A stretch of 11,268 nt of DNA from an uncultured bacterium. Lineage in GTDB: Bacteria > CAIJMQ01. A program made the position numbers and the translations under genes. Of the stretch, positions 3-11,268 are shown in pieces. The stretch spans positions 1 to 11,268 of the forward strand of contig CAZNJA010000045.1 of the NCBI GenBank assembly GCA_964573245.1. The letters run 5' to 3'. Positions within the stretch are counted from its first letter, which is position 1; each line of letters starts with the position of its first letter. Under the pieces are notes generated by a model. It saw only the letters and a program-made list of their open reading frames with translations. It did no database searches and was not told where the DNA came from.

Positions 3-362
3 GGAGGGAATATTATCATCGGAGACCATTGTAGTATTAATCCCTTTTCTATTCTTTACGGACATGGGGGGCTTGAAATCGGTTCAATGGTCAGAATAGC
101 TGCTCACGTCGTAATCATCCCGGGAAACCATGGTATTGATAATCTTGAAATCCCTATCATGGAACAACCTACTGTCAAAGAAATGATTAAAATTTGTGAT
201 AATGTTTGGATAAGCGCCGGTGTAAAGATATTGGGCGGAGTAACAATTAATTCAGGGGCTGTGATAGCAGCAGGGGCAGTTGTAACAAAAGATGTCCCTA
301 AAAATGCAATTGCTGGCGGTGTCCCAGCAAGAATTTTAAGATTTCGTGGTAAAAAACAATAG
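3..362 (+). CDS. Hexapeptide-repeat (left-handed beta-helix) O-acyl/acetyltransferase, 5'-truncated by the window edge
   Basis: The frame of ORF 87..362 stays open back to base 3 (GGNIIIGDHCSINPFSILYGHGGLEIGS then MVRIAAH), so the ATG at 87 is internal. The C-terminal motifs ICDNVWISAGVKILGGVTINSGAVIAAGAVVTKDV and GVPARILR are typical of maltose/galactoside acetyltransferase-like LbH proteins. Confidence 0.9.
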   Translation, partial: GGNIIIGDHCSINPFSILYGHGGLEIGSMVRIAAHVVIIPGNHGIDNLEIPIMEQPTVKEMIKICDNVWISAGVKILGGVTINSGAVIAAGAVVTKDVPKNAIAGGVPARILRFRGKKQ

Positions 363-384: not shown

Positions 385-1173
385 ATGAAAAAGTATTTCG
401 ATAAACAAAATAACTGCCTTGTATATATAGGAAAACCGGCGAATCAAAAGATGTGGGAAAAAAGGTGGCAGAATGAAGACATCAAGAAACTCTTTTCACC
501 GCCAATATACTCTAGGGCAGATAAAACCATACTAGATATAACAAAAAAATATATACCTATCGGCTCGAAAATACTTGAGGGAGGTTGTGGTCTTGGAAAT
601 AACGTTTTTTTTCTTAAACAATCGGGATACGAAGTGATAGGCGTAGATTATGCTTCAAAAACTGTTCATCGGGTCAATGAATTCATGCCGGAGATAGACA
701 TCCGGTATGGAAATGTCGAACACCTTGATTTCCCCGATTGTTTTTTCGACGGTTACTGGTCTTTGGGAGTTATCGAACATTTTTATAAAGGATATCAAAA
801 AATAGCGCGCGAAATGTATAGAGTTTTAAAGCCCCGCGGTCACCTTTTCATGACAGTTCCCGCCATGTCAACCCTAAGAAAGCTAAAAGCTGATTTAAGG
901 ATTTTCCCGAATTTCGATGAGAAAAAAACGGATATTTCCAATTTTTATCAATATGCTTTCACGGATAAAGAAATACGGATGGCTTTCCAAGATTTTGGTT
1001 TTGATTTCATTGAAAAACAGAGTTGGAATATTTACAAAGGTTTATCTGATGAAATTCCTGGGAGTCGTTTTCTAATGAGCTTTTTATGCAGGTTTCTATA
1101 TAAACCTACATGGTTTTTATTAAAAAATTTTTGTAATCACATGAACCTTTTCGTCTTTCGTAAAAAAATATGA
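385..1173 (+). CDS. Class I SAM-dependent methyltransferase (probable glycan or sugar modification)
   Basis: 262 aa ORF with motif I ILEGGCGLG, post-I VIGVDY, motif II FPDCFFDGYWSLGVIEH and motif III RVLKPRGHLFMTVP. The substrate is inferred only from context. Confidence 0.88.
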   Translation: MKKYFDKQNNCLVYIGKPANQKMWEKRWQNEDIKKLFSPPIYSRADKTILDITKKYIPIGSKILEGGCGLGNNVFFLKQSGYEVIGVDYASKTVHRVNEFMPEIDIRYGNVEHLDFPDCFFDGYWSLGVIEHFYKGYQKIAREMYRVLKPRGHLFMTVPAMSTLRKLKADLRIFPNFDEKKTDISNFYQYAFTDKEIRMAFQDFGFDFIEKQSWNIYKGLSDEIPGSRFLMSFLCRFLYKPTWFLLKNFCNHMNLFVFRKKI

Positions 1174-2285
1174 ACGAAACGCAACGATCTGTCGTATTGC
1201 TTATAGATGAATTAGGTCCTGGAGGCGCTCCACGGCAAATATGTATGCTTGCGCTTGAATTAGCAAAACGAGGATATCGCGTACAGATAGTATGTTATTA
1301 TCATAGTTCGTGGCATAAGAAATTATTGAGTGATGCGATACCGGTTAAAGTTGTTACCTGGCGTAATAAGATATCTAAGATATGGAATGTGTATCGATTC
1401 TTAAGGGAACAAAAAAGCGAAGTTGTTATTTCTTATTTAAAAGGCCCTAATATTCTTAACATACTTAACAGGTTTCCAAGAAAGGTTTCTAAGATAATAA
1501 TTTCCGAAAGGAATACAGACTCCTATCCAATTTCTTTTAGAAACAAAATTATTTTTTCCCTCTATCGTTTTGCGGATATTATAGTGGTAAATTCAAAAAG
1601 CCAGATGTCCTTGTTACAAAAAAATGCTTCTTACTTGATGCACAAAATTCGCTTGGTGCAGAACTGTGTGGATTTGGAAAAATTCGACTTACGCATTTCT
1701 GCACATAACACAAATAAAAAAAAGATAGTTTTTGGCGTCTTCGCCAGCTATTCCGAACGGAAGCGTCCTCAGGACCTTATTATTGCCGCAGAAAAGATTT
1801 TAAACAAATTGAATGGTATTACCCCTTATTTTATCTGGTGTGGTGAACAAAGGGATCCATCTTCCGGCAAGCTGTATAAAGAATTTGAAAAAGCAAAAAA
1901 TAAATTATCAGAATACAATCTGGGAAATTTTTTTGATTTACGCGGGCCAACAACTGAACCTGAAAAAATAATGCGGGAAATAGACTGTGTATGTCTTGTT
2001 TCGGAGAGAGAAGGATTTCCAAATTCAATATGTGAAGCATTTGCCAGCGGCAAACCGGTTGTTGCAACCCGCGTGGGAGATGTACCATATCTGGTAACCG
2101 AAGGCAAAACAGGTTTCATCGCAGAGCCCAAATCCCCCGGGAGCATAGCTTCCGCATTACTAAAGATGCTATTATTGGATGATTCCAAGAGATTAGAAAT
2201 GGGAAAGGCCGCAAGGCATTTTGCTGAACAGAATCTATCTGCTGAAAGATTTTGTAAACAATACATTGAAATAATTAACAGTTGA
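1170..2285 (+). CDS. GT4-family (GT-B fold) glycosyltransferase
   Basis: 371 aa ORF with N-terminal LGPGGAPRQ, IISERN, and C-terminal E-x7-E motif SEREGFPNSICEAFASGKPVVATRVGD. The start overlaps the previous stop (ATGA, 1170-1173). Confidence 0.92.
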   Translation: MNETQRSVVLLIDELGPGGAPRQICMLALELAKRGYRVQIVCYYHSSWHKKLLSDAIPVKVVTWRNKISKIWNVYRFLREQKSEVVISYLKGPNILNILNRFPRKVSKIIISERNTDSYPISFRNKIIFSLYRFADIIVVNSKSQMSLLQKNASYLMHKIRLVQNCVDLEKFDLRISAHNTNKKKIVFGVFASYSERKRPQDLIIAAEKILNKLNGITPYFIWCGEQRDPSSGKLYKEFEKAKNKLSEYNLGNFFDLRGPTTEPEKIMREIDCVCLVSEREGFPNSICEAFASGKPVVATRVGDVPYLVTEGKTGFIAEPKSPGSIASALLKMLLLDDSKRLEMGKAARHFAEQNLSAERFCKQYIEIINS

Positions 2286-2297
2286 AAGAGAGAGAAA

Positions 2298-3332
2298 ATG
2301 AAGGTTTTTATGCTCCATGTAGGAGATCCCGCAAAAAATACTGCTGGGCCAGAAGGACTATATTTAAAAATGATTTGTTTTAATGACGGGAAGTTAAAAA
2401 GATATTTTAAAAAAGATATTATTAATTCAGTTAGCCAAATGCTCTCAATTAAGAGAGCGAATGTTGATGTTAAGTATGGATTTTTTACTGGAAGAAAATC
2501 ATTAAAAGAATTAATAAAAGCTGGACTTCGTTTACGTAAAGAAATAAAGCATGAAAGCATTGAACTTGTGCATGCCCTTTGGGGTGGGACGACTTCTCTG
2601 ATGGGGGTAGTGTTTTCCCCTGTGCCGGTTGTAATTTCCTTCTGCGGCAGCGACCTTCTTTACGACACGATTATTTCTAGAAATTATATTTCTCATTTTT
2701 TTTCTCAGATATCCGGAGTATTTGCAAAACAAATCATAGTAAAATCAAAACAAATGTATGACTTGCTTTGGCCAAGGAATAGAACCAAATGCACTATTAT
2801 ACCCAATGGAGTAGATATGAATATCTTCTATCCGATAGAAAAAACAGAGGCCAGAAGAAAATTATCTTGGGATATTGATAAAAAGATAATTTTATTTTTC
2901 CCGGGAGGAGGAACAAATATAAAAGATCCAGCACTTGCTGAGGCAACCATATCTTACGTGCAGAAAATAATTCCAGAGACTATAATGGTCAAGGTTGAGA
3001 ATGTAATTCACGAAGACCTTAATTACTATTATAATGCTGTAGATGCGCTTTTATTAACTTCAGTGCATGAGGGGTCAAATAATTCCATAAAAGAAGCTTT
3101 GTGTTGCAATCTCCCGATAGTGGCGGTTAATTGTGGAGATGCCAAAGAACGCTTGCAGGGAGTAAGTCAATGTTATGTGATAAATAACAGATCATATGAA
3201 AGATTAGGAGAATGTTTGATTAAGATATTAAAAGATAAATCACGGAGTAACGGGAGAAACTATATTCAAAATTTGAGCTTAGAAAAAGTAGCGCACAAGG
3301 TAATAGATGTTTATAAAGCAGCTCTTGTATAG
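2298..3332 (+). CDS. GT4-family glycosyltransferase
   Basis: 344 aa ORF with PVVISFCGSDL, IIPNGVD, and E-x7-E motif TSVHEGSNNSIKEALCCNLPIVAVNCGD. Confidence 0.88.
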   Translation: MKVFMLHVGDPAKNTAGPEGLYLKMICFNDGKLKRYFKKDIINSVSQMLSIKRANVDVKYGFFTGRKSLKELIKAGLRLRKEIKHESIELVHALWGGTTSLMGVVFSPVPVVISFCGSDLLYDTIISRNYISHFFSQISGVFAKQIIVKSKQMYDLLWPRNRTKCTIIPNGVDMNIFYPIEKTEARRKLSWDIDKKIILFFPGGGTNIKDPALAEATISYVQKIIPETIMVKVENVIHEDLNYYYNAVDALLLTSVHEGSNNSIKEALCCNLPIVAVNCGDAKERLQGVSQCYVINNRSYERLGECLIKILKDKSRSNGRNYIQNLSLEKVAHKVIDVYKAALV

Positions 3333-3401: not shown

Positions 3402-4535
3402 ATGAATAGGGCTTACCAAATTTGCACCAAATGTATTATGGACACTACAGATATAGAAATACAGTTTGATAAAAACAGCAGATGTAATCATTGCAGGAAA
3501 TATGATGAAAGGGCACAAAAAGAACTGCACCTTGATGCCGGCGGACAAAAAAAGCTCAACCAGCTTGTAAATGAAATCAAAAATAAGGGGAAAAATAAAG
3601 AATATAATTGTATCATCGGTCTTAGCGGCGGCGCAGATAGCACAACGGTTGCTTACATAGTTAAGAAAAAATTGGGACTTAGACCATTAGCTATTACAGT
3701 AAATAATGGATGGAACAGCGAATTAGCAGAAAAGAATATAGAAAATTTAGTAAAAAAACTTAATATAGATTTATATACTCATGTACTTAATTGGGAAGAA
3801 TTCAAAGACGTACAGTTATCTTTCTTAAAAGCATCGGTTGCGAATTGTGAAGCTCCCACTGACCAAGCAATCATATCTCTTCTTTACCATACAGCTGCAA
3901 AAAGAGGAATACCTTATATCATAAGTGGCGGGAATCTGGTAACAGAAGCAATAATGCCCAAAAGTTGGGGATATTGTGCAAGGGATTGGAAACAGATTAA
4001 GAGCATCCATAAAAAATTTGGGAGAATAAAACTGAGAAGTTTTCCTCATCTGACTTTATTTGATTGGGGATATTATACTTTCATAAAAGGAATCAAATTC
4101 ATTCCCATACTAAATTATTTTGCATATGTTAAAAAGGACGCAAAACAACTTATTGAAAAAGAACTTTGTTGGAAGGATTACGGAGCGAAACATTTTGAAT
4201 CCGTATATACCCGTTTCTTCCAAGCTTATATTCTTCCCAAGAAATTCGGGTTCGATAAAAGGAGAGCTCATCTATCTACTCTTATTTGTTCGGGGCAAAT
4301 ATCGCGAGAAGAAGCATTGGAAGAGATGAAAGCTCCTCCCTACCCCTCTCAAGATATGATGGAAGAGGATAAGAGATTGGCACTTAAAAAACTTGAGCTT
4401 ACTGAAAAAGAATTCGAAGATATAATGTCTTTACCTATTAAAACATATAAAGATTATCCTAATAATGATTTTCTATCCAAAAAATTGGCCTTTTTTGCAA
4501 GATTTGCTCATAAAGTAATTACATATAATAAATAA
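3402..4535 (+). CDS. N-acetyl sugar amidotransferase (WbpG/WbuX/PseA family, PP-loop ATPase), probably forming an acetamidino group
   Basis: 377 aa ORF with N-terminal Cys pairs CTKC and CNHC, PP-loop CIIGLSGGADS, GLRPLA-x3-NNGWNSELA, YGAKHFES and FGFDKRRAHLSTLICSGQISREEAL, all characteristic of this family. Confidence 0.92.
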   Translation: MNRAYQICTKCIMDTTDIEIQFDKNSRCNHCRKYDERAQKELHLDAGGQKKLNQLVNEIKNKGKNKEYNCIIGLSGGADSTTVAYIVKKKLGLRPLAITVNNGWNSELAEKNIENLVKKLNIDLYTHVLNWEEFKDVQLSFLKASVANCEAPTDQAIISLLYHTAAKRGIPYIISGGNLVTEAIMPKSWGYCARDWKQIKSIHKKFGRIKLRSFPHLTLFDWGYYTFIKGIKFIPILNYFAYVKKDAKQLIEKELCWKDYGAKHFESVYTRFFQAYILPKKFGFDKRRAHLSTLICSGQISREEALEEMKAPPYPSQDMMEEDKRLALKKLELTEKEFEDIMSLPIKTYKDYPNNDFLSKKLAFFARFAHKVITYNK

Positions 4536-4545
4536 GAGAGAACAA

Positions 4546-5775
4546 ATGAAAATTTGGTATATATCTGCCTATGATGCTCCTGAAGGTGAATCATCAAGGA
4601 CTTATGACTATGCTAAGGAATTGACCTATATGGGGCATCAAGTCACTTTTTTCACTTCAAGTTATAATCACTTTACGCATAAAGAACGACTTAAAAAGAA
4701 AGAGAAATGGCGGGTAGAATGGTTTGGGGGAATCCGTGTAATTTGGTTAAAAACTTTTCCTTATAAAGATAACGGTTTGAAACGAGGAATTAATATGTTA
4801 AGTAATGCTTGGCATGCTTATTGGGTGGGCAGATCCTTAGAAGAAAAACCGGATATTATCTTTGGGCCGTCTGTACCTTTGTTCACTGGATTATCAGCAT
4901 ATTTTCTTTCTTTAAATAAGAAATGTTCCTTCTGCTTTGAAGTTAGAGACATTTGGCCTCAAGCATTGATTGACCTTGGTGTTTTATCAGAAAAAACTCC
5001 GATTACATGGCTATTACGTAAGATTGAGATTTTTCTTTATAGGCGGGCAAACAAGATTATTGCGGCTTTACCTTTTGCGTATAAGCATATTTGCCAATAT
5101 GGAATATCACCTGAACGGGTCATTTGGATTCCAAATGGCGTAAATCTAAAGCGTTTTTCTACTTGTAAAGCATACTCCGGGGGGGGAATAGACTCGTTAG
5201 TTGTGATGTATGTGGGACGGTTTGCTGCTGGACATGGAACTGAGGTTATTTTACAATCAGCGAGAATATTGCAGAAGAATTTCAACTTAAAAATCAAATT
5301 TATTTTTGTGGGAGACGGGCCGGGTAAGATACGGTTTGAACAAAAGATGCAAGAATATGGCATTAAAAATATTGAATTGAGAAAAGCCGTACCAAAAAGT
5401 GAAATCCCACGTGTTTTGGAAAAGGCCGATCTTCTTATCGCCAGTCTTCAAGACATTTCTATTTATCAGTTTGGAATTAATTTGAACAAAATTTATGACT
5501 ATCTTGCTTCAGGACGTCCAATTATATTCGCGGCCAATGCCCCTAATAATCCCATAGCAGACGCAAATGCGGGTATTTCGATTCCTCCCGAAAACTCACA
5601 GGCAATGGTAGAAGCCATCAAGACTATTTTTTCGATGTCACCTGAGAAACGGCGTATTTTGGGAGAAAACGGCAGAAGATATGCCGAAAGACATTATGAT
5701 ATCCGTATACTCGCTAAAAAACTTGAAAACATACTTTTAAAGGAAATCCATGAAACTCGAAGAACGCAAACTTAA
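4546..5775 (+). CDS. GT4 glycosyltransferase, WbuB/Cap5L-like subfamily
   Basis: 409 aa ORF with FEVRDIWPQ (EVRDxWP signature), WIPNGV, VMYVGRF, FVGDGP and NKIYDYLASGRPII (K-x2-D/E-Y-x-A-x-G-x-P). Confidence 0.9.
   Translation: MKIWYISAYDAPEGESSRTYDYAKELTYMGHQVTFFTSSYNHFTHKERLKKKEKWRVEWFGGIRVIWLKTFPYKDNGLKRGINMLSNAWHAYWVGRSLEEKPDIIFGPSVPLFTGLSAYFLSLNKKCSFCFEVRDIWPQALIDLGVLSEKTPITWLLRKIEIFLYRRANKIIAALPFAYKHICQYGISPERVIWIPNGVNLKRFSTCKAYSGGGIDSLVVMYVGRFAAGHGTEVILQSARILQKNFNLKIKFIFVGDGPGKIRFEQKMQEYGIKNIELRKAVPKSEIPRVLEKADLLIASLQDISIYQFGINLNKIYDYLASGRPIIFAANAPNNPIADANAGISIPPENSQAMVEAIKTIFSMSPEKRRILGENGRRYAERHYDIRILAKKLENILLKEIHETRRTQT
5179..5186 (+). repeat. G8 homopolymer tract inside the WbuB-like glycosyltransferase
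   Basis: The sequence tcc ggg ggg gga contains eight consecutive G, encoding Gly-Gly-Gly in frame. It is the longest G or C run I found in the window. Confidence 0.9.
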
Positions 5776-6589
5776 AGAAATAGAACATACTGATTGTCGC
5801 AGGCAAATTGTTACTGGTTATGAATATCAGACTGACACTGCCCAAGACCAGCAAAAGAAGGGTTTTATCACTAATGATAAAGAGTTTCAGAAGTATTTCT
5901 CAAACATGAAGTTTTATAGCATTACACGGTCTAGTACTGCATATAGAGATACAATGCTCTACGAAGGAATAAAGGGATGCACGGTTCTTGATTATTGTTG
6001 TGGTAACGGCGAGGCAAGTATTGGTATTGCCCGAAAAGGTGCTGACAAAATCTATGGAATCGATATTTCCCAAGTGGCTATCAATAATGCAATCAAACTG
6101 GCAGAAAACAGCGGAGTACAGAAACAGTGCGAATTCAAAGTTATGGATGCGGAAAATATGGAATTTGATGAAAACACCTTTGACATTATTCATGAATACG
6201 GAGCACTCCATCACCTTGAACTTGATACAGCACTAAAAGAATTAGCACGCGTTTTGAAACCAGACGGGAAAATCATTTGCACTGAGACACTGCGTCATAA
6301 TCCTATTATTCATTACTATCGCCGAAAGACCCCGCATCTACGAACAAAATGGGAAGCTGAACATATTTTAGGAGTGCCAGAAATTATGTCGGGACGTAAA
6401 TATTTTGAAAAAATCAAAATGCGTTTTTTCCATCTCGCTGCACTCGGGGCAGTCCCTTTCAGGAAAACGCTTCTCTTTAAACCGTTTTTAACATCATTGG
6501 AAACAATAGACGATATATTGACGAGAATTCCATACTTGAAATATATGGCATGGATTGCAGTAATTGTATATTCCAAACCTAAGAAATAA
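5750..6589 (+). CDS. Class I SAM-dependent methyltransferase
   Basis: 279 aa ORF with motif I VLDYCCGNG, IYGIDIS, MDAENMEFDENTFDII, GALHHL and ARVLKPDG. It overlaps the upstream gene by 26 nt, and AAGGA lies just upstream of the ATG. Confidence 0.9.
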   Translation: MKLEERKLKEIEHTDCRRQIVTGYEYQTDTAQDQQKKGFITNDKEFQKYFSNMKFYSITRSSTAYRDTMLYEGIKGCTVLDYCCGNGEASIGIARKGADKIYGIDISQVAINNAIKLAENSGVQKQCEFKVMDAENMEFDENTFDIIHEYGALHHLELDTALKELARVLKPDGKIICTETLRHNPIIHYYRRKTPHLRTKWEAEHILGVPEIMSGRKYFEKIKMRFFHLAALGAVPFRKTLLFKPFLTSLETIDDILTRIPYLKYMAWIAVIVYSKPKK

Positions 6590-6615
6590 TTTTTACATTA
6601 ATTACTTACTTTTAA

Positions 6616-7281
6616 ATGAGAAAACACGAAACCTTTTTTATACAACATTTCTATTCCTATCGGGGAAAGCACTTAATAGACTATTCGCTGGCATTTTTGG
6701 GGATCGTAATTTTCAGTCCGATTTTTTTGGTTATCACAGTGTTAGTAAAGATAAGTTCCCCGGGGCCGATATTTCACAAAGGTATCAGGACAAGTAAAGA
6801 CGGTATCCCTTTTCGCATGTTCAAATTTCGTACCATGGTGGAATATGCAGAAAAAATAGGGGGACCATCCACTGCCCTTAATGACCCTCGTTTAACAAAA
6901 ATCGGCAAATTCCTTAGAACATATAAATTAGACGAACTGCCGCAATTGATCAATATTCTTAAAGGAGAGATGAGCTTCGTTGGCCCAAGGCCTCAAGTTA
7001 AAGAGTATACTCAATTCTATAATAAAGAGGAAAAAATTATTCTTACCGTTCGCCCGGGTATGACGGATTATGCTACTATTAGATATATATATTTAGACAA
7101 GGTTTTAGGCAATAAGGATGTAGATAAGTTATATCGCGAAAAGATTGAACCGGAAAAAAACAAACTAAGAATAAAATACGCAAAAAACTATTCATTTCTC
7201 ATAGATATCAAAATAATTCTTGAGACAATTCAGGCAATAACTAAAGTGATTATATTAAAAGAATGGAATATCGAAAATTAG
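6616..7281 (+). CDS. Small monotopic phosphoglycosyl transferase (bacterial sugar transferase, PglC-like; initiates glycan on polyprenyl phosphate)
   Basis: 221 aa ORF with one N-terminal hydrophobic segment containing Ser-Pro (LAFLGIVIFSPIFLVITVLV), plus FKFRTM, DPRLT, catalytic LDELPQL, GEMSFVGPRP and VRPGMT. The exact start is uncertain because there is no clear SD. Confidence 0.93.
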   Translation: MRKHETFFIQHFYSYRGKHLIDYSLAFLGIVIFSPIFLVITVLVKISSPGPIFHKGIRTSKDGIPFRMFKFRTMVEYAEKIGGPSTALNDPRLTKIGKFLRTYKLDELPQLINILKGEMSFVGPRPQVKEYTQFYNKEEKIILTVRPGMTDYATIRYIYLDKVLGNKDVDKLYREKIEPEKNKLRIKYAKNYSFLIDIKIILETIQAITKVIILKEWNIEN

Positions 7282-8186
7282 GTTTGACAGATTTAAAAAT
7301 TTCCAGGATTGGTTTGGGCTGCTGGGCGATAGGAGGGCATGGCTGGGGTAAAGTCAGAGACAAAGATTCCATTGCTGCAATTCGTCAAGCTATTAAATTA
7401 GGAATTAATTTTTTTGATACAGCCGATGTTTATGGATTCGGACATTCCGAGGAAATTTTAAGTAAAGCTCTGGGCTCTTACAGAAACAAGGTAATTATTG
7501 CAACCAAATTCGGTATAAAATGGGACGAGACAGGGAAAACAACCAAAGATATTAGTCCCAAAAGAGTAATAAAAGCTTTAGATGACAGCCTAAAACGTTT
7601 AAGGATTAATTGTATTCCTCTTTATCAAATCCATTGGCCGGATTTTAAAACACCTATTTACGAAACGATGGAAACTCTGGGAAAATGCCAAAAAGCTGGA
7701 AAAATCAGATATATTGGTTGTTCTAATTTCTCCGTTGATTTAATAAAAGAGGCTCAAAAAGTCTTGCGAATAGAATCGTTGCAGATGCCTTATAATATAA
7801 AAGAACGAGAAATTGAAAAGGAGATTATCCCTTATTGCCAAAAACATAAAATAGGTATTATTACACATAGCACTCTAATTCAGGGTCTTTTCACGGGGAA
7901 ATATGGTAAAAATTCTAAATTTGACCAGAACGATATCCGCAACCGTTATACAAATTGGCAGGGAGAAAAGTTCAACCAGAACTTAAAAATAGTAAAAAAA
8001 TTAAGAGAATTATCTAACCTTTACAATAAAACACCGGCTCAAATTGCTATCCGCTGGGTTTTGGATAATCCTTTTATTACTTGTGCTCTTGCAGGTGTTA
8101 AAAAATCAGAACAAATTAAAGAAAATATAGGTATAATTGATTGGAAACTTTCGGGAGAAGACAGACAAAATCTTGGAAAAATATAA
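7263..8186 (+). CDS. Aldo/keto reductase (NAD(P)H-dependent)
   Basis: 307 aa ORF with IGLGCWAIGG, FFDTADVYG (catalytic Asp and Tyr), IATKFG (Lys), LYQIHWPD (His), GKIRYIGCSNF and QMPYN. It overlaps the PGT gene by 19 nt. Confidence 0.93.
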   Translation: MEYRKLGLTDLKISRIGLGCWAIGGHGWGKVRDKDSIAAIRQAIKLGINFFDTADVYGFGHSEEILSKALGSYRNKVIIATKFGIKWDETGKTTKDISPKRVIKALDDSLKRLRINCIPLYQIHWPDFKTPIYETMETLGKCQKAGKIRYIGCSNFSVDLIKEAQKVLRIESLQMPYNIKEREIEKEIIPYCQKHKIGIITHSTLIQGLFTGKYGKNSKFDQNDIRNRYTNWQGEKFNQNLKIVKKLRELSNLYNKTPAQIAIRWVLDNPFITCALAGVKKSEQIKENIGIIDWKLSGEDRQNLGKI

Positions 8187-8203
8187 TCCAAACAAAATAG
8201 TTT

Positions 8204-9223
8204 ATGAAGAAAAAAAAATTATGTGCAAATAAAAAACTCATAAAAGATATTTCCAGAAAAGTTCTATTAAAACTTTACATAGCAATGGTTAGAATTAGGT
8301 TTTGTGAAGAGAGCTTTGTCCAACCAATCCTTCGGAAAGAAATAATAGGGCCTGTCCACTTATATTCAGGAGAAGAAGCAATTGCAGCCGGTATATGCGC
8401 AAACTTAGAAGAAAAAGATTATATTTTCGGCACACATCGTTCTCACGGCCATTTTCTTGCAAAGGGCGGCTTAATGAACGAACTTGTTGCTGAGGTGTAT
8501 TGTAAAGAAACCGGCTGCGCAAAAGGAAGAGGTGGGTCAATGCATGTAACTTGTCCAGAAAAAGGAATGATTGGAGCAGCTCCTATTGTTGCAGGAACTA
8601 TTTCTTTGGCTTTAGGAGCTGCGCTTGCAACAAAAATACGCAAGGATAACCGCGTAGTGGTAAGCTTTTTTGGGGATGGGGCCACAGGTGAAGGCGTATT
8701 ATATGAATCGCTTAATTTTGCCGCTTTAAAGAAACTACCTATAATATTCGCTTGTGAAAATAACTTTTATTCAACACACCTTTCTCTTAAAGAATGCAGA
8801 TACGAAAAAAACATTTCCAAAATAGGTTATTCATTCGGTGTGCCAAGTTATAAGGTAGACGGCAATAATGTCTTAGCAGTTTATAAAATTGCAAAATCAG
8901 CTGTTTCAGCATGCAGAAAAAATAAAGGTCCCGTATTTATAGAATTTTCCACATATAGATTGCGCGGGCATGTTGGGCCGGATGATAATATACAGGGATG
9001 TCATAGGGATATTAGACCCGCCACAGAAATTACGGATTGGAAGAAAAGAGACCCTATAATACGAATGGAAGCATTTCTATTGGATAATAATATATGCACA
9101 ACAGAAGATATAGACTCAATCAAATCAAACGCCAATAAAGAAGTCCAAAATGCACATGAAATTGCAAAAAAGGCGCCCAATCCCCAACCAAAAGAGTTAA
9201 GCAGATATGTCTTTAAAAAATAG
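8204..9223 (+). CDS. ThDP-dependent 2-oxoacid dehydrogenase E1 alpha-like subunit (PdhA/AcoA family)
   Basis: 339 aa ORF with HLYSGEEA, THRSHGH, GRGGSMH, ThDP/Mg motif GDGATGEG...ENN and TYRLRGH. Confidence 0.93.
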   Translation: MKKKKLCANKKLIKDISRKVLLKLYIAMVRIRFCEESFVQPILRKEIIGPVHLYSGEEAIAAGICANLEEKDYIFGTHRSHGHFLAKGGLMNELVAEVYCKETGCAKGRGGSMHVTCPEKGMIGAAPIVAGTISLALGAALATKIRKDNRVVVSFFGDGATGEGVLYESLNFAALKKLPIIFACENNFYSTHLSLKECRYEKNISKIGYSFGVPSYKVDGNNVLAVYKIAKSAVSACRKNKGPVFIEFSTYRLRGHVGPDDNIQGCHRDIRPATEITDWKKRDPIIRMEAFLLDNNICTTEDIDSIKSNANKEVQNAHEIAKKAPNPQPKELSRYVFKK

Positions 9224-10220
9224 AAAATTAAAGTACAGTGAAGCTTTTAATGAAGCTCTTCACGAGATTATGTCTCGGGACAAATCCGTTTTTATAATTG
9301 GTCAGGGCGTAAAGAGCCCTTGGTATGTCGGCGATACGGTTCGTGGTTTAATCAAAAAATTCGGTGTTGAAAGAGTTATTGATACCCCGGTATCCGAAAA
9401 TGCTGTCACGGGTGCAGCAGTAGGAGCCGCTATAGTCGGTATGAAGCCGGTTGTCGTTCATCCAAGAATGGATTTTATGATGTATGCAATGGACCCAATA
9501 ATTAATGAAGCAGCTAATTGGCATTACATGAGTGCCGGCAGATCATCAGTACCGCTTGTGATTTGGGCGATTATAAACCGCGGAGGAGAACAGGCAGCTC
9601 AACATTCACAGGCCATGCATGCTCTATTTGCACATATTCCAGGACTAAAAGTTGTCATGCCCGCTACTCCATATGACGCAAAGGGCCTACTTATTGCGAG
9701 TATCAAGGATAACAATCCTGTTATATTCATCGACGATAGATGGCTATATAACATGAAAGGTAATGTTCCAAAAGGAATGTATTCGGTCCCTATAGGAAAA
9801 GGCCAAATTAAGAAAAAAGGAAAAGATGTTACACTGGTAAGCATTTCCTATATGGTACATGAATCTATTAAAGCGGCTGAAAAATTAAAGGAAGAAGGAA
9901 TAGACGTGGAAGTAATAGATTTGCGAACATTAAAACCATTAGACAAAAAACTTTTATTTGAATCGGTAAAAAAAACAGGCAGATTGGTTATTGCAGATTC
10001 CGGATGGAAAAGTTTCGGAGCCGCCTCAGAAATTTCCGCTTTAGTATCCGAAACCCTTTTTAAATATCTTAAACGCCCTCCCAAGAGAATAGCCCTACCC
10101 GATACACCTGCTCCCGCAAGTTCTATATTGGAAAAACCGTTCTACCCGAAAGAAAGCAATATTGTATGCACAATAAAAAACTTATTCAAAAAAAGACCAC
10201 AGATGCCGGATGAACGATAA
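9207..10220 (+). CDS. ThDP-dependent E1 beta-like subunit (PdhB/AcoB family; transketolase pyrimidine-binding and C-terminal domains)
   Basis: 337 aa ORF with RVIDTPVSE (cofactor-activating Glu), AAQHSQ (His), HIPGLKVVMPATPYDAKGLL and EVIDLRTLKPLD. It overlaps the alpha gene by 17 nt. Confidence 0.93.
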   Translation: MSLKNRKLKYSEAFNEALHEIMSRDKSVFIIGQGVKSPWYVGDTVRGLIKKFGVERVIDTPVSENAVTGAAVGAAIVGMKPVVVHPRMDFMMYAMDPIINEAANWHYMSAGRSSVPLVIWAIINRGGEQAAQHSQAMHALFAHIPGLKVVMPATPYDAKGLLIASIKDNNPVIFIDDRWLYNMKGNVPKGMYSVPIGKGQIKKKGKDVTLVSISYMVHESIKAAEKLKEEGIDVEVIDLRTLKPLDKKLLFESVKKTGRLVIADSGWKSFGAASEISALVSETLFKYLKRPPKRIALPDTPAPASSILEKPFYPKESNIVCTIKNLFKKRPQMPDER

Positions 10221-10262
10221 AATGCCATTTATAGATGAATTTAAATATTAAAGTTTATATGC

Positions 10263-10279
10263 GATTTTATGATAAAATC
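10263..10279. promoter_or_regulatory. Perfect 8-1-8 inverted repeat overlapping a candidate extended -10 promoter element
   Basis: GATTTTAT-G-ATAAAATC at 10263-10279. It contains TG-A-TAAAAT (10270-10278), matching TGnTATAAT with one mismatch. It lies in the 96 bp intergenic gap before the dehydratase gene. The palindrome is seen directly; its function is inferred. Confidence 0.45.
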
Positions 10280-10302
10280 CGAACAATACCTAAAATGAAC
10301 GT

Positions 10303-10307
10303 GAGGA
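10303..10307 (+). promoter_or_regulatory. Shine-Dalgarno sequence of the dehydratase gene
   Basis: GAGGA lies 9 nt upstream of the ATG at 10317. Confidence 0.65.
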
Positions 10308-10316
10308 TAGTTAACA

Positions 10317-11268
10317 ATGAATATTTCAAGTAGAAAAAGAGTAATCTTATTTATTTTAGCCGATATTTTATTAATAACTTTCTCCATCTGGTTAGCTTTC
10401 TTTTTAAGATTTGAAGGAAATATCCCGCCAAAACAATTGCTCTTGATGAGAAATTTTATTGTTTTTGCCAATCTTTTAATCATACCTACTTTTTATCATT
10501 TTCGTCTTTACCATTTTAGTTGGAATTTGATTAGTATTTTCACACTTTTGAGTCTTATTAAGGCTCTTGCAACTGACTTTATTCTTATCGGAACTATTTT
10601 ATTTTTCTTCAGAGAGAAGTTTTTTGTTGGATTCCCAAGGTCAGTATTCTTGATTTCCGCATTTTTGATTTTTTTAACCTGTGGCGGAATCCGCTTTGCA
10701 AAAAGAGTAATAAAAGAATTTTCCCCAAAACAATCTTCCGGCAGCAAAATTTTAATTGTAGGAGCAGGTAAAGCAGGGGGGCAACTACTAAGAAACATTT
10801 TGGGTGAGGCAAAAGACTCTTATAATCTAATTGGTCTTATAGATGATGATCCAAACAAACAAGGGATTTTTATCCATAATATTAGAGTTTGCGGTACTAT
10901 ACAAGATATACCTAAAATAGTAAAAAAATTTAATGTTGATAGAGTAATAATAGCCATACCTTCTGCTTCAGGAGATAAAATATCACGGATTTATAAATTT
11001 TGCCATCAAGTAAAGGTTCCCGTTTCCATAGTCCCACGTGTAAGTGAACTATTAGACAAAAGTATTTCCATAAACCAGATACGCAAGATACAGCCGGAGG
11101 ATATACTCGGGAGAGAAACAATAAAATTGAATACCGCAGAAATAAAACAATATCTTGACAATAAAACCATATTAATTACAGGTGCAGCGGGTTCAATTGG
11201 TTCGGAATTATCCCGACAAATAGCAGAATATAATACAAGAGCGCTTATTTTGATAGATAAAGAGGAAA
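10317..11268 (+). CDS. Membrane-anchored nucleotide-sugar 4,6-dehydratase, CapD/PglF/WbpM family, 3'-truncated by the window edge
   Basis: Absent from the ORF track because no stop lies in the window. Manual translation from ATG 10317 (in-frame TAG at 10308-10310 upstream) is open to the end. It reads MNISSRKRVILFILADILLITFSIWLAFFLRF, about four hydrophobic segments including FPRSVFLI, ILIVGAGKAG, IGLIDDDPNKQG, IIAIPSA, EDILGRE and the Rossmann motif ILITGAAGSIGSELSRQI. Confidence 0.93.
   Translation, partial: MNISSRKRVILFILADILLITFSIWLAFFLRFEGNIPPKQLLLMRNFIVFANLLIIPTFYHFRLYHFSWNLISIFTLLSLIKALATDFILIGTILFFFREKFFVGFPRSVFLISAFLIFLTCGGIRFAKRVIKEFSPKQSSGSKILIVGAGKAGGQLLRNILGEAKDSYNLIGLIDDDPNKQGIFIHNIRVCGTIQDIPKIVKKFNVDRVIIAIPSASGDKISRIYKFCHQVKVPVSIVPRVSELLDKSISINQIRKIQPEDILGRETIKLNTAEIKQYLDNKTILITGAAGSIGSELSRQIAEYNTRALILIDKEE

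Follow-up and report, generated by a model that had tools for sequence, protein, structure and literature searches.

A possible surface-glycan cassette that joins a stand-alone E1 alpha/beta pair to a phosphoglycosyl transferase and may build C4-branched amino sugars

Some antibiotic pathways attach two-carbon branches to sugars by using E1 alpha/beta pairs of the alphaKADH2 type. As summarized in a review, these pairs use pyruvate to put an acetyl branch on keto sugars, the branches are later reduced, methylated or transaminated, and the enzymes occur "mainly" in specialized metabolites (PMC12247030). One such pair, KbDH alpha/beta of kibdelomycin biosynthesis, has been assayed in vitro using pyruvate and ketones (PMC12247030). 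In the paulomycin pathway, the proposed role of the pair Pau11/Pau12 is to install the C4' acetyl branch, whereas the aldo/keto reductase (AKR) Pau7, which is reported as AKR5I, was shown in vitro to reduce this branch to hydroxyethyl in assays on the glycosylated antibiotic (PMC4753412). The alphaKADH2 substrates named in these publications (PMC4753412, PMC12247030) are antibiotic-pathway sugars, not UDP-HexNAc. The O-polysaccharide sugar shewanellose is 2-acetamido-2,6-dideoxy-4-C-(3'-carboxamide-2',2'-dihydroxypropyl)-D-galactose, so C4-branched 2-acetamido-2,6-dideoxyhexose scaffolds occur in nature (PMC4052302).

We analyzed a stretch of 11,268 nucleotides (the window) from an uncultured bacterium, whose genome comprises 110 contigs (1.46 Mb, 93% complete). 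The window is one whole contig (C45). Therefore, the locus is truncated at both ends, and a gene that is not in the window may still belong to the locus. Domains were assigned to window ORFs by Pfam and NCBIfam profile searches (Table 1).

Table 1. Features of the window and the profile matches that define them
Feature	Positions	Strand	Evidence
Hexapeptide acetyltransferase, C-terminus	3-362	+	Pfam/NCBIfam
MTase	385-1173	+	Pfam/NCBIfam
GT4	1170-2285	+	Pfam/NCBIfam
GT4	2298-3332	+	Pfam/NCBIfam
WbuX-type N-acetyl sugar amidotransferase	3402-4535	+	TIGR03573, 299.7 bits, cut-off 203
GT4	4546-5775	+	Pfam/NCBIfam
Class-I SAM methyltransferase (MT2)	5750-6589	+	Methyltransf_25/11/31 (Pfam)
Small phosphoglycosyl transferase (PGT), Bac_transf/PglC type, 221 aa	6616-7281	+	PF02397, 185 bits, residues 18-209
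AKR, 307 aa	7263-8186	+	PF00248 Aldo_ket_red, 260 bits
E1 alpha, ThDP-dependent, 339 aa	8204-9223	+	PF00676 E1_dh, 238 bits
E1 beta, 337 aa	9207-10220	+	PF02779 Transket_pyr + PF02780 Transketolase_C
CapD/PglF/WbpM-type dehydratase, N-terminal 317 aa, truncated by the contig end	10317-11268	+	CoA_binding_3 + Polysacc_synt_2 positions 1-33

ORF coordinates confirm the arrangement that was originally predicted, namely a PGT, an AKR, the E1 pair and the N-terminal part of a CapD/PglF enzyme on one strand, with overlaps of 19 nt (PGT/AKR) and 17 nt (alpha/beta) and a gap of 17 nt between AKR and alpha; 96 nt separate beta from CapD. The accompanying statement that aminotransferases and SDR enzymes are missing holds for the window, where profile searches found no DegT aminotransferase or SDR (Pfam and NCBIfam) and no class-I aminotransferase (Pfam). 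However, the genome does have a DegT, on contig C18, which also carries an acyltransferase and, in a locus other than that of the window, an ALS-like ThDP enzyme.

We give about an even chance to the hypothesis that the block at positions 5750-11268 represents the AKR-containing form of a glycan cassette that moves horizontally and builds a C4-branched amino sugar by the following pathway. The conserved core of this cassette consists of CapD, a stand-alone E1 alpha/beta pair and a small PGT. CapD-family enzymes make UDP-2-acetamido-2,6-dideoxy-hexos-4-ulose, in which C4 is the only ketone, from UDP-GlcNAc, and the CapD of the window would perform this step. The E1 pair, lacking an E2, would act as an alphaKADH2-type carboligase: after ThDP-dependent decarboxylation of pyruvate, the resulting acetyl-anion equivalent would attack the C4 ketone, and C4 would become a tertiary alcohol that bears an acetyl branch. 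By analogy with Pau7, the AKR would reduce the branch ketone to a 1-hydroxyethyl group, and, more speculatively, MT2 might methylate the product. The PGT, presumed to be the initiating enzyme, would then move the sugar 1-phosphate onto undecaprenyl phosphate, making this sugar the first residue, and GT4 enzymes would extend the lipid-linked residue. In most relatives, a DegT-type aminotransferase in place of the AKR would instead produce a 1-aminoethyl branch.

Related loci were fetched to evaluate this arrangement (95 in total, 74 unique after de-duplication), and the fractions that follow are over readable loci. E1 alpha orthologues with 51-79% identity come from at least nine named phyla. 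The hosts belong mostly to uncultivated, non-actinobacterial phyla, and include Saccharibacteria, Omnitrophota, Nitrospirota and the small-genome phylum of the window itself. The conserved order is [MTase]-PGT-[AKR]-E1α-E1β-[DegT]-[class-I aminotransferase]-[MTase]-CapD; its recurrence in 95 loci (74 unique) is far beyond chance. Among unique loci, E1 beta directly follows E1 alpha in all cases (58/58), and a PGT is just upstream in 48/53. Of the 22 loci whose downstream sequence reaches 5 kb or more, 16 have CapD downstream, and it was not found in the other 6; it was also not found within 20 kb in genome G275. One locus (L020) encodes a PGT-CapD fusion. A class-I/II aminotransferase whose best NCBIfam matches are generic amino-acid aminotransferases follows DegT in 13/28 readable loci. 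The expected co-occurrence with the E1 pair was thus observed for PGT and CapD. An AKR is likewise encoded between PGT and E1 alpha elsewhere, but only as a minority partner (8/65 unique related loci), whereas a DegT follows E1 beta in 33/39. Wzy is also present in related cassette loci.

Comparison with a genome of the same genus (G002) shows SDR-PGT-CapD in place of the window's PGT-AKR-E1 alpha/beta-CapD. The window CapD shares 74% identity, across 312 aa, with the full-length, 648-aa CapD of that genome, and no second CapD copy was found in the window's own genome. The window PGT has just 38% identity to its G002 counterpart, versus 44-69% identity to E1 alpha-adjacent PGTs of other phyla. 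MT2 homologues appear in related loci either directly upstream of PGT or between DegT and CapD; among AKR-variant loci, a homologue is upstream of PGT in four (L018, L057, L075 and L124), with a GT4 gene intervening in L057. MT2 is therefore predicted to be a cassette-associated tailoring enzyme.

The E1 pair retains an intact ThDP site, in that alignment with human E1 alpha shows both GDG...ENN and the TYRLRGH histidine to be conserved. Pfam identifies two subunits, not a single chain with TPP_enzyme_N, M and C domains. An ordinary catabolic E1 of pyruvate or acetoin dehydrogenase could conceivably have come to lie in a glycan locus by accident, but we consider this very improbable. The top family names for the pair are indeed pyruvate dehydrogenase (PDH) E1 alpha and beta, E1 beta scores above the subfamily-level cut-off of NF006667 (343.5 bits versus 321; NCBIfam), and the nearest solved structure to E1 alpha is human PDH E1 alpha. 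However, E1 alpha falls below the equivalog cut-off of TIGR03182 (312.9 versus 393.85 bits; NCBIfam), and the 93%-complete genome, in which this is the sole true E1_dh, has no match to the E2 domain PF00198 (2-oxoacid_dh). Four E2 probes also had no matches in the window plus the 95 cassette loci (828 kb in total), although E2 was detected directly after E1 beta in four distant loci that serve as a positive control (L038, L040, L041 and L045). The E2 domain was not found in three of five searched cassette host genomes, and no carrier protein was found in cassette gap ORFs. Cassette E1 alphas form one clade (71 rows, SH-aLRT 99) separate from E2-linked E1s. Synteny with PGT, DegT and CapD across at least nine phyla, and the lack of the E1 alpha gene in eight of eight genomes of the window's own phylum, also argue against a catabolic role. 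We conclude that the window E1 pair does not belong to a dehydrogenase complex.

The AKR retains the tetrad D, Y, K, H in an alignment to 1pz1. Its best matches are YhdN and IolS, which we take to be AKR11-type, and its best NCBIfam match is YdjG (212.8 bits), whereas DkgA and DkgB, presumably AKR5-type, score only 89 and 78 bits (NCBIfam). Judged by these scores, it is AKR11-like and not a member of the AKR5 family. DegT is absent from three of the four AKR-bearing loci, window included, versus 1 of 36 AKR-less loci (Fisher p = 0.0016, with related loci not being independent). On the E1 tree, the rows with an AKR are dispersed and involve at least three changes, and in L078 a DegT occupies the slot that the AKR has in L075, a locus with a near-identical E1 alpha. 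Nonetheless, AKR and DegT are not strict alternatives, because L124 has intact genes for both, together with a class-I aminotransferase. The DegT partners represent at least three subtypes that are 40-50% identical to one another, and their nearest solved relatives act on ring ketones. These features of DegT weigh against the preferred pathway, as do the gene content of L124, the loci in which CapD was not found, the AKR11-like type of the AKR, the existence of closer AKR homologues (69-74% identity), and the antibiotic-pathway substrates of the known alphaKADH2 enzymes.

These observations can also be accommodated by an unlikely alternative in which C4 of the keto sugar is the direct target of the AKR (of DegT in most relatives), so that QuiNAc/FucNAc or a 4-amino sugar results, much as in the classical PglF/PglE pathways, while the E1 pair supplies another substituent (for example, acyl or hydroxyethyl on O or N) by undescribed chemistry. 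The PGT/aminotransferase/CapD layout mirrors PglC/PglE/PglF, with E1 alpha/beta replacing the acetyltransferase, and a hexapeptide acyltransferase is found in just 1 of the 95 fetched loci. The SDR at the equivalent position in G002, the resemblance of DegT partners to ring-ketone aminotransferases, and the joint presence of AKR and DegT in L124 are likewise consistent with direct action at C4. However, ThDP acyl transfer from a 2-oxo acid requires an oxidant, and no lipoyl, FAD or Fe-S oxidant is encoded in the cassette or its gap ORFs. Also, cassette DegT sequences match PglE and PseC far more weakly (E-values of 1e-31 to 1e-35) than the 3-aminotransferases QdtB, DesV and WbpE (1e-70 to 1e-81), and on this basis are not PglE-like. 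To our knowledge, no AKR is a UDP-4-keto-HexNAc 4-reductase, whereas reduction of an acetyl branch by an AKR has been demonstrated with Pau7 (PMC4753412). Somewhat less probable still is that carboligation occurs as proposed with other details, such as a longer 2-oxo acid donor (perhaps derived via the class-I aminotransferase in loci that have one), another keto position, or a lipid-linked sugar as acceptor. The frequency and generic amino-acid type of the aminotransferase that follows DegT would fit a longer donor, but the window has no such gene, and the CapD family yields only a C4 ketone. YerE-like enzymes take C3-C8 donors, whereas alphaKADH2 enzymes are described as apparently specialized for C2 branches, with KbDH alpha/beta limited to pyruvate (PMC12247030).

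Addition of an acetyl branch at C4 is the preferred explanation. This branching chemistry, advanced in the original prediction, has good support from analogy and synteny, though it is unproven, because the tailoring known for alphaKADH2 branches corresponds to the partners that vary among these loci. The PGT/CapD synteny and the lack of an E2 favor the branched-sugar interpretation, and its precedent is closer than the one first cited, in the form of Pau11/Pau12 with the AKR Pau7 (PMC4753412) and the KbDH pair (PMC12247030). Two parts fared less well: the AKR is a minority partner, and the suggestion that a pathway to a yersiniose-like branched 2-acetamido sugar is not known to be characterized needs the qualification that antibiotic sugars already provide examples of this chemistry and that the structure of shewanellose is established (PMC4052302). 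What would be new, though it is unproven, is the use of alphaKADH2 branching in surface-glycan synthesis, on a UDP-HexNAc and in association with a PGT. More broadly, and slightly short of an even chance in our estimation, a mobile cassette found in at least ten phyla, the window's own included, may make undescribed C4-acetyl-branched 2-acetamido-2,6-dideoxyhexoses, tailored to 1-hydroxyethyl (AKR) or 1-aminoethyl (DegT) forms or methylated, that serve as the lipid-linked first glycan residue.

If so, these would be the first alphaKADH2-type C-branching enzymes in primary envelope glycan synthesis, acting on UDP-HexNAc, and E1-type ThDP carboligases would not be restricted to actinomycete antibiotic sugars. 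Many uncultivated lineages would use such enzymes recurrently to build amino sugars with a quaternary carbon for the reducing end of surface glycans, and these would be a new class of sugar in bacterial glycobiology. For annotation, E1 alpha/beta genes without E2 beside PGT and CapD genes should then not be called pyruvate dehydrogenase. Biocatalysis would gain many and diverse carboligases that accept ketones and come with matched reductase and transaminase partners.

PglC/PglD/PglE/PglF (diNAcBac) and WcfR/WcfS (AATGal) are initiating-sugar modules. Like most cassette relatives, they combine a small PGT, a CapD/PglF dehydratase and a DegT into a single module for the lipid-linked first sugar. 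Unlike these modules, the cassette always has a stand-alone E1 alpha/beta pair and almost never the hexapeptide acetyltransferase, and in the window it contains an AKR but lacks DegT. Shewanellose, as its structure is described, has a branch that is longer than the C2 unit proposed here, and we know of no link between that sugar and E1 enzymes. YerE and YerE-like enzymes of yersiniose, erwiniose and caryophyllose (LPS) are described as performing the kind of reaction proposed here, ThDP-dependent acyl-anion addition to a 4-keto-6-deoxy sugar nucleotide. However, YerE is a single chain of the decarboxylase (ALS-like) superfamily that acts on a CDP-3,6-dideoxy sugar, whereas the cassette has an E1 alpha/beta heteromer and, presumably, a 2-acetamido scaffold. 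The window AKR resembles Pau7 in having an intact tetrad and in being encoded beside an E1 alpha/beta pair, but Pau7 is reported as AKR5I, and the window enzyme would act on a nucleotide sugar; the analogy is therefore functional and not one of orthology. In gene content and published descriptions, the cassette E1 pair resembles AviB1/AviB2, Pau11/Pau12, the aldgamycin pair and KbDH, which are two-subunit E1 enzymes without E2 beside an NDP-sugar 4,6-dehydratase and have the same kinds of tailoring partner (reductase, aminotransferase or methyltransferase). Unlike those antibiotic pairs, the cassette of the window resides in a surface-glycan locus with a PGT, GT4 enzymes and, in relatives, Wzy, and its scaffold is predicted to derive from UDP-GlcNAc through a membrane-type CapD.

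The window constitutes the whole of contig C45 in a 1.46-Mb genome (G000) that comprises 110 contigs and is estimated to be 93% complete. Its forward strand is filled by twelve ORFs, separated by short gaps or overlapping, which were assigned by using ORF calls, Pfam, and NCBIfam. The original prediction gave overlaps of 19 nt between the phosphoglycosyl transferase (PGT) and aldo-keto reductase (AKR) genes and of 17 nt between E1 alpha and E1 beta, with 17 nt separating AKR from E1 alpha; these sizes exactly match the ORF coordinates. Pfam and NCBIfam show neither a DegT nor an SDR gene in the window.

Genes assigned in the window, with the basis of each assignment
Feature	Position	Strand	Basis
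Hexapeptide acetyltransferase, C-terminus	3-362	+	Pfam/NCBIfam
Methyltransferase MT1 (class-I)	385-1173	+	Pfam/NCBIfam
GT4 glycosyltransferase, first	1170-2285	+	Pfam/NCBIfam
GT4 glycosyltransferase, second	2298-3332	+	Pfam/NCBIfam
WbuX-type N-acetyl sugar amidotransferase	3402-4535	+	299.7 bits vs cut-off 203
GT4 glycosyltransferase, third	4546-5775	+	Pfam/NCBIfam
Methyltransferase MT2	5750-6589	+	Pfam/NCBIfam
PGT, 221 aa, Bac_transf	6616-7281	+	Pfam/NCBIfam
AKR	7263-8186	+	Pfam/NCBIfam
E1 alpha	8204-9223	+	Pfam/NCBIfam
E1 beta	9207-10220	+	Pfam/NCBIfam
CapD/PglF-type protein, first 317 aa only, cut at contig end	10317-11267	+	Pfam/NCBIfam

Relatives of E1 alpha number in the thousands, and the best 120 are 62-79% identical to it. 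We retrieved the DNA surrounding 95 orthologues, 15 from named genomes and 80 from metagenomes, and annotated these loci by tblastn with the cassette proteins and by Pfam on neighboring genes. The named hosts are Omnitrophota, a 'Deltaproteobacteria' MAG, Saccharibacteria, Nitrospiria, Flavobacteriales, Bacteroidales, a Pseudomonadota MAG, Syntrophaceae, Desulfobacterium, Elusimicrobia, and an anammox planctomycete. A same-strand gene order recurs, in which brackets mark variable genes: [MTase]-PGT-[AKR]-E1 alpha-E1 beta-[DegT]-[class-I/II aminotransferase]-[MTase]-CapD. Merging near-identical loci removed 21 duplicates and left 74, and the following counts use the readable loci among these. 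E1 beta follows E1 alpha in 58/58 loci, and DegT is the next gene after E1 beta in 33/39. The original prediction had asked whether AKR, PGT, and CapD accompany the E1 pair. This holds for PGT, found within 2.2 kb upstream of E1 alpha in 48 of 53 loci, and for CapD, found downstream in 16 of the 22 loci with at least 5 kb readable; AKR, however, is a minority partner, directly upstream of E1 alpha in only 8/65. A class-I aminotransferase lies downstream in 13/28. In one locus (L020:5589-8117), the E1 pair is directly followed by an 842-aa fusion of PGT (Bac_transf) and full CapD (CoA_binding_3 and Polysacc_synt_2), and a single cassette locus (L021) carries a PglD-like hexapeptide acyltransferase.

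The cassette is rare and patchy. It occurs in 2 of 401 sampled Bacteroidia genomes, the second of which (G275) has the arrangement GT4s-MTase-PGT-E1 alpha/beta-DegT-aminotransferase-Wzy. Searching the 401 genomes for AKR at E <= 1e-80 yielded 0/401, but at a cut-off so strict that it also dropped the cassette AKR of genome G009, which leaves this zero uninformative. The window's phylum is represented in our collection by nine genomes of 0.9-1.9 Mb each (G000 and G001-G008). E1 alpha is absent from the relatives in the window's order (0/4) and phylum (0/8 genomes), and its vertical history is not traceable from them.

Some neighboring genes also have counterparts elsewhere. MT1, which separates the acetyltransferase fragment from the first GT4 and is unrelated to MT2, has only weak homologues in cassette loci (26% identity; L098-L100). 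Homologues of the WbuX-type amidotransferase, an enzyme type of acetamidino formation, are 52-66% identical and occur in at least four further loci (L015, L024, L101, and L115), where they precede the cassette by a few kilobases, a hint that acetamidino sugars often accompany it.

An E1 pair could belong to a complex with an E2 component or, like the enzymes termed alphaKADH2, could add branches to sugars. At four control loci (L038, L040, L041, and L045), whose E1 pairs are 35-40% identical to that of the window, an E2 with a lipoyl domain lies directly 3' of the pair. Probes consisting of the four E2 proteins from these loci gave zero matches across the 828 kb that make up the window and the 95 related loci, and in G000 they matched solely a small lipoyl/biotinyl-type domain on contig C10. 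A profile search detected no 2-oxoacid_dh (E2) domain in G000, where the cassette E1 is the only true E1_dh gene, the one other match being weak (a 664-aa frame on contig C44). The E2 domain was not found in three of five cassette-carrying genomes searched, whose completeness is not given. ORFs that occupy unusual gaps inside cassettes included no lipoyl or carrier genes, being exclusively toxin-antitoxin, IS200, 23S-IVP, or AAA_14/DUF4143 sequences. Such inserts were seen in L061, L076, L079, L088, L027, L064, L063, L120, and L132, and some split E1 alpha from E1 beta; the toxin-antitoxin inserts are DUF433/DUF5615 and MNT/HepT, and the IS200 inserts are transposase fragments. E1 alpha retains the GDG...ENN ThDP motif and, in an alignment, a His at the position of the human active-site His, and it looks active; with these features conserved, we found no discriminating active-site difference from complex-forming E1s, and the comparison does not separate the rival readings.

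In a quick maximum-likelihood tree with SH-aLRT support only, the cassette E1 alpha sequences form a single 71-row clade (SH-aLRT 99) that is apart from E2-linked E1s and adjoins the E1s of four loci with sugar-type contexts (L029, L031, L035, and L036). The E1 pairs of these four loci, one of them in Aquitalea magnusonii, are 41-45% identical to the window's; the genes downstream of them encode SDR sugar epimerase/dehydratases, radical SAM proteins, GT2s, or a split transketolase rather than E2. E1-type sugar chemistry may be broader than the cassette.

A genome of the same genus (G002) provides a comparison. Its locus on contig C10 (L140:13122-19664, minus strand) runs from FnlB/FnlA/FnlC-like genes through an SDR and a small PGT directly to CapD, its last gene, with convergent genes downstream. 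This is a classical FucNAc/QuiNAc-type arrangement where the window has the E1 cassette. The G002 CapD (648 aa) is 74% identical to the window's CapD fragment, whereas the PGTs of the two loci share 38% identity, and the window PGT shares 44-69% identity with the PGTs of cassettes in other phyla. These identities indicate that PGT-AKR-E1 alpha/beta takes the place of SDR-PGT ahead of a CapD that is vertically conserved; this argues that the inserted genes process the 4-keto product of CapD.

The distribution of AKR and DegT is that of interchangeable tailoring modules. Where sequence extends beyond E1 beta, three of four AKR loci (the window, L057, and L082) lack DegT and proceed from E1 beta to CapD, whereas DegT is present in 35 of 36 loci without AKR (Fisher p = 0.0016, a significance overstated by relatedness among loci). 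The nine AKR-bearing rows are scattered on the E1 alpha tree, where the starred branches require at least three changes. Moreover, DegT in L078 occupies exactly the AKR slot of L075, and the E1 alpha sequences of these two loci are nearly identical. The DegT partners comprise at least three subtypes with mutual identity of just 40-50%, while E1 alpha/beta stays at 58-72%. The cassette DegT matches QdtB, DesV, and WbpE with E values of 1e-70 to 1e-81, versus 1e-31 to 1e-35 for PglE and PseC; it is not an obvious C4 aminotransferase of UDP-HexNAc.

The sequence data show the gene identities, the lack of E2, the synteny, and the module swap. In the pathway that we infer, including every chemical step and their order, CapD would make a UDP-4-keto sugar, to which E1 alpha/beta would add a C2 acetyl branch, with pyruvate as putative donor and C4 as putative acceptor position. 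The branch ketone would then be tailored, in the window by AKR to 1-hydroxyethyl, and PGT would receive the branched UDP-sugar as the first sugar of the glycan. We consider it about evenly balanced whether the window pathway delivers UDP-4-C-(1-hydroxyethyl)-2-acetamido-2,6-dideoxyhexose, perhaps methylated, to PGT in this role. Three observations count against this reading: the window's AKR is AKR11-like, whereas Pau7, the AKR of paulomycin biosynthesis, is reported as AKR5; AKR, DegT, and aminotransferase genes are all intact in L124; and AKR homologues closer to the window's AKR than the cassette AKRs exist (69-74% identity; P0122-P0130). Among the 120 listed AKR homologues, three share longest-contig size with E1 alpha matches (81910, 12454, and 6495), a hint of co-location only.

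The tight linkage of PGT across phyla favors the branched sugar as the initiating residue. An aminotransferase elsewhere in the locus whose product PGT prefers would argue against this, and G000 has a second glycan block on contig C18 (C18:92-9082; L011). After the final 30 codons of an unidentified gene on the same strand, it is headed by a hexapeptide acyltransferase, DegT, and Wzz; next come NeuB, a NeuC-type epimerase, a PGDH-like 2-hydroxyacid dehydrogenase, a 514-aa ALS-like ThDP enzyme, a GFO/IDH/MocA oxidoreductase, and a PseF-like cytidylyltransferase. That a nonulosonic-acid cluster contains a ThDP enzyme and a 2-hydroxyacid dehydrogenase suggests an acyl or branched substituent of an unusual kind. 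Sequence searches and comparison with G002 revealed no link between C18 and C45, and C18 as a continuation of C45 is possible but not supported: the G002 locus ends at CapD, with no C18-type genes seen after it. Because nothing links the C18 acyltransferase/DegT pair to C45, and a nonulosonic-acid pathway suits that pair no less well than a PglD/PglE role, the initiating-sugar part of the original prediction is neither refuted nor proven.

Related chemistry is known from several systems. For paulomycin, a C4' acetyl branch is proposed to be added by Pau11/Pau12, which are homologues of E1 alpha/beta, and its reduction to hydroxyethyl by Pau7 was shown by knockout and in vitro (PMC4753412). A review that uses the term alphaKADH2 for E1 alpha/beta sugar-branching enzymes describes evidence from feeding and knockouts on the aldgamycin pair, in vitro pyruvate-ketone coupling by KbDH alpha/beta, and later reduction, methylation, oxidation, or transamination of the branch ketone; it associates YerE-like enzymes with LPS and alphaKADH2 mainly with specialized metabolites (PMC12247030). 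Carboligation by E. coli PDH E1 alone is reported (PMC7696235), and the known O-antigen sugars include shewanellose, a C4-branched 2-acetamido-2,6-dideoxy-galactose (PMC4052302). Full-text literature searches listed no description of E1 alpha/beta beside PGT and CapD at a surface-glycan locus; the 'about 120 BGCs' of PMC12247030 ref. 70 may include some. The CapD/E1 alpha/beta/PGT core, with AKR, DegT types, class-I aminotransferase, and MTase as variables, fits alphaKADH2 pathway logic, and we liken the cassette E1 pair to the alphaKADH2 antibiotic pairs by gene content and this logic rather than by sequence comparison.
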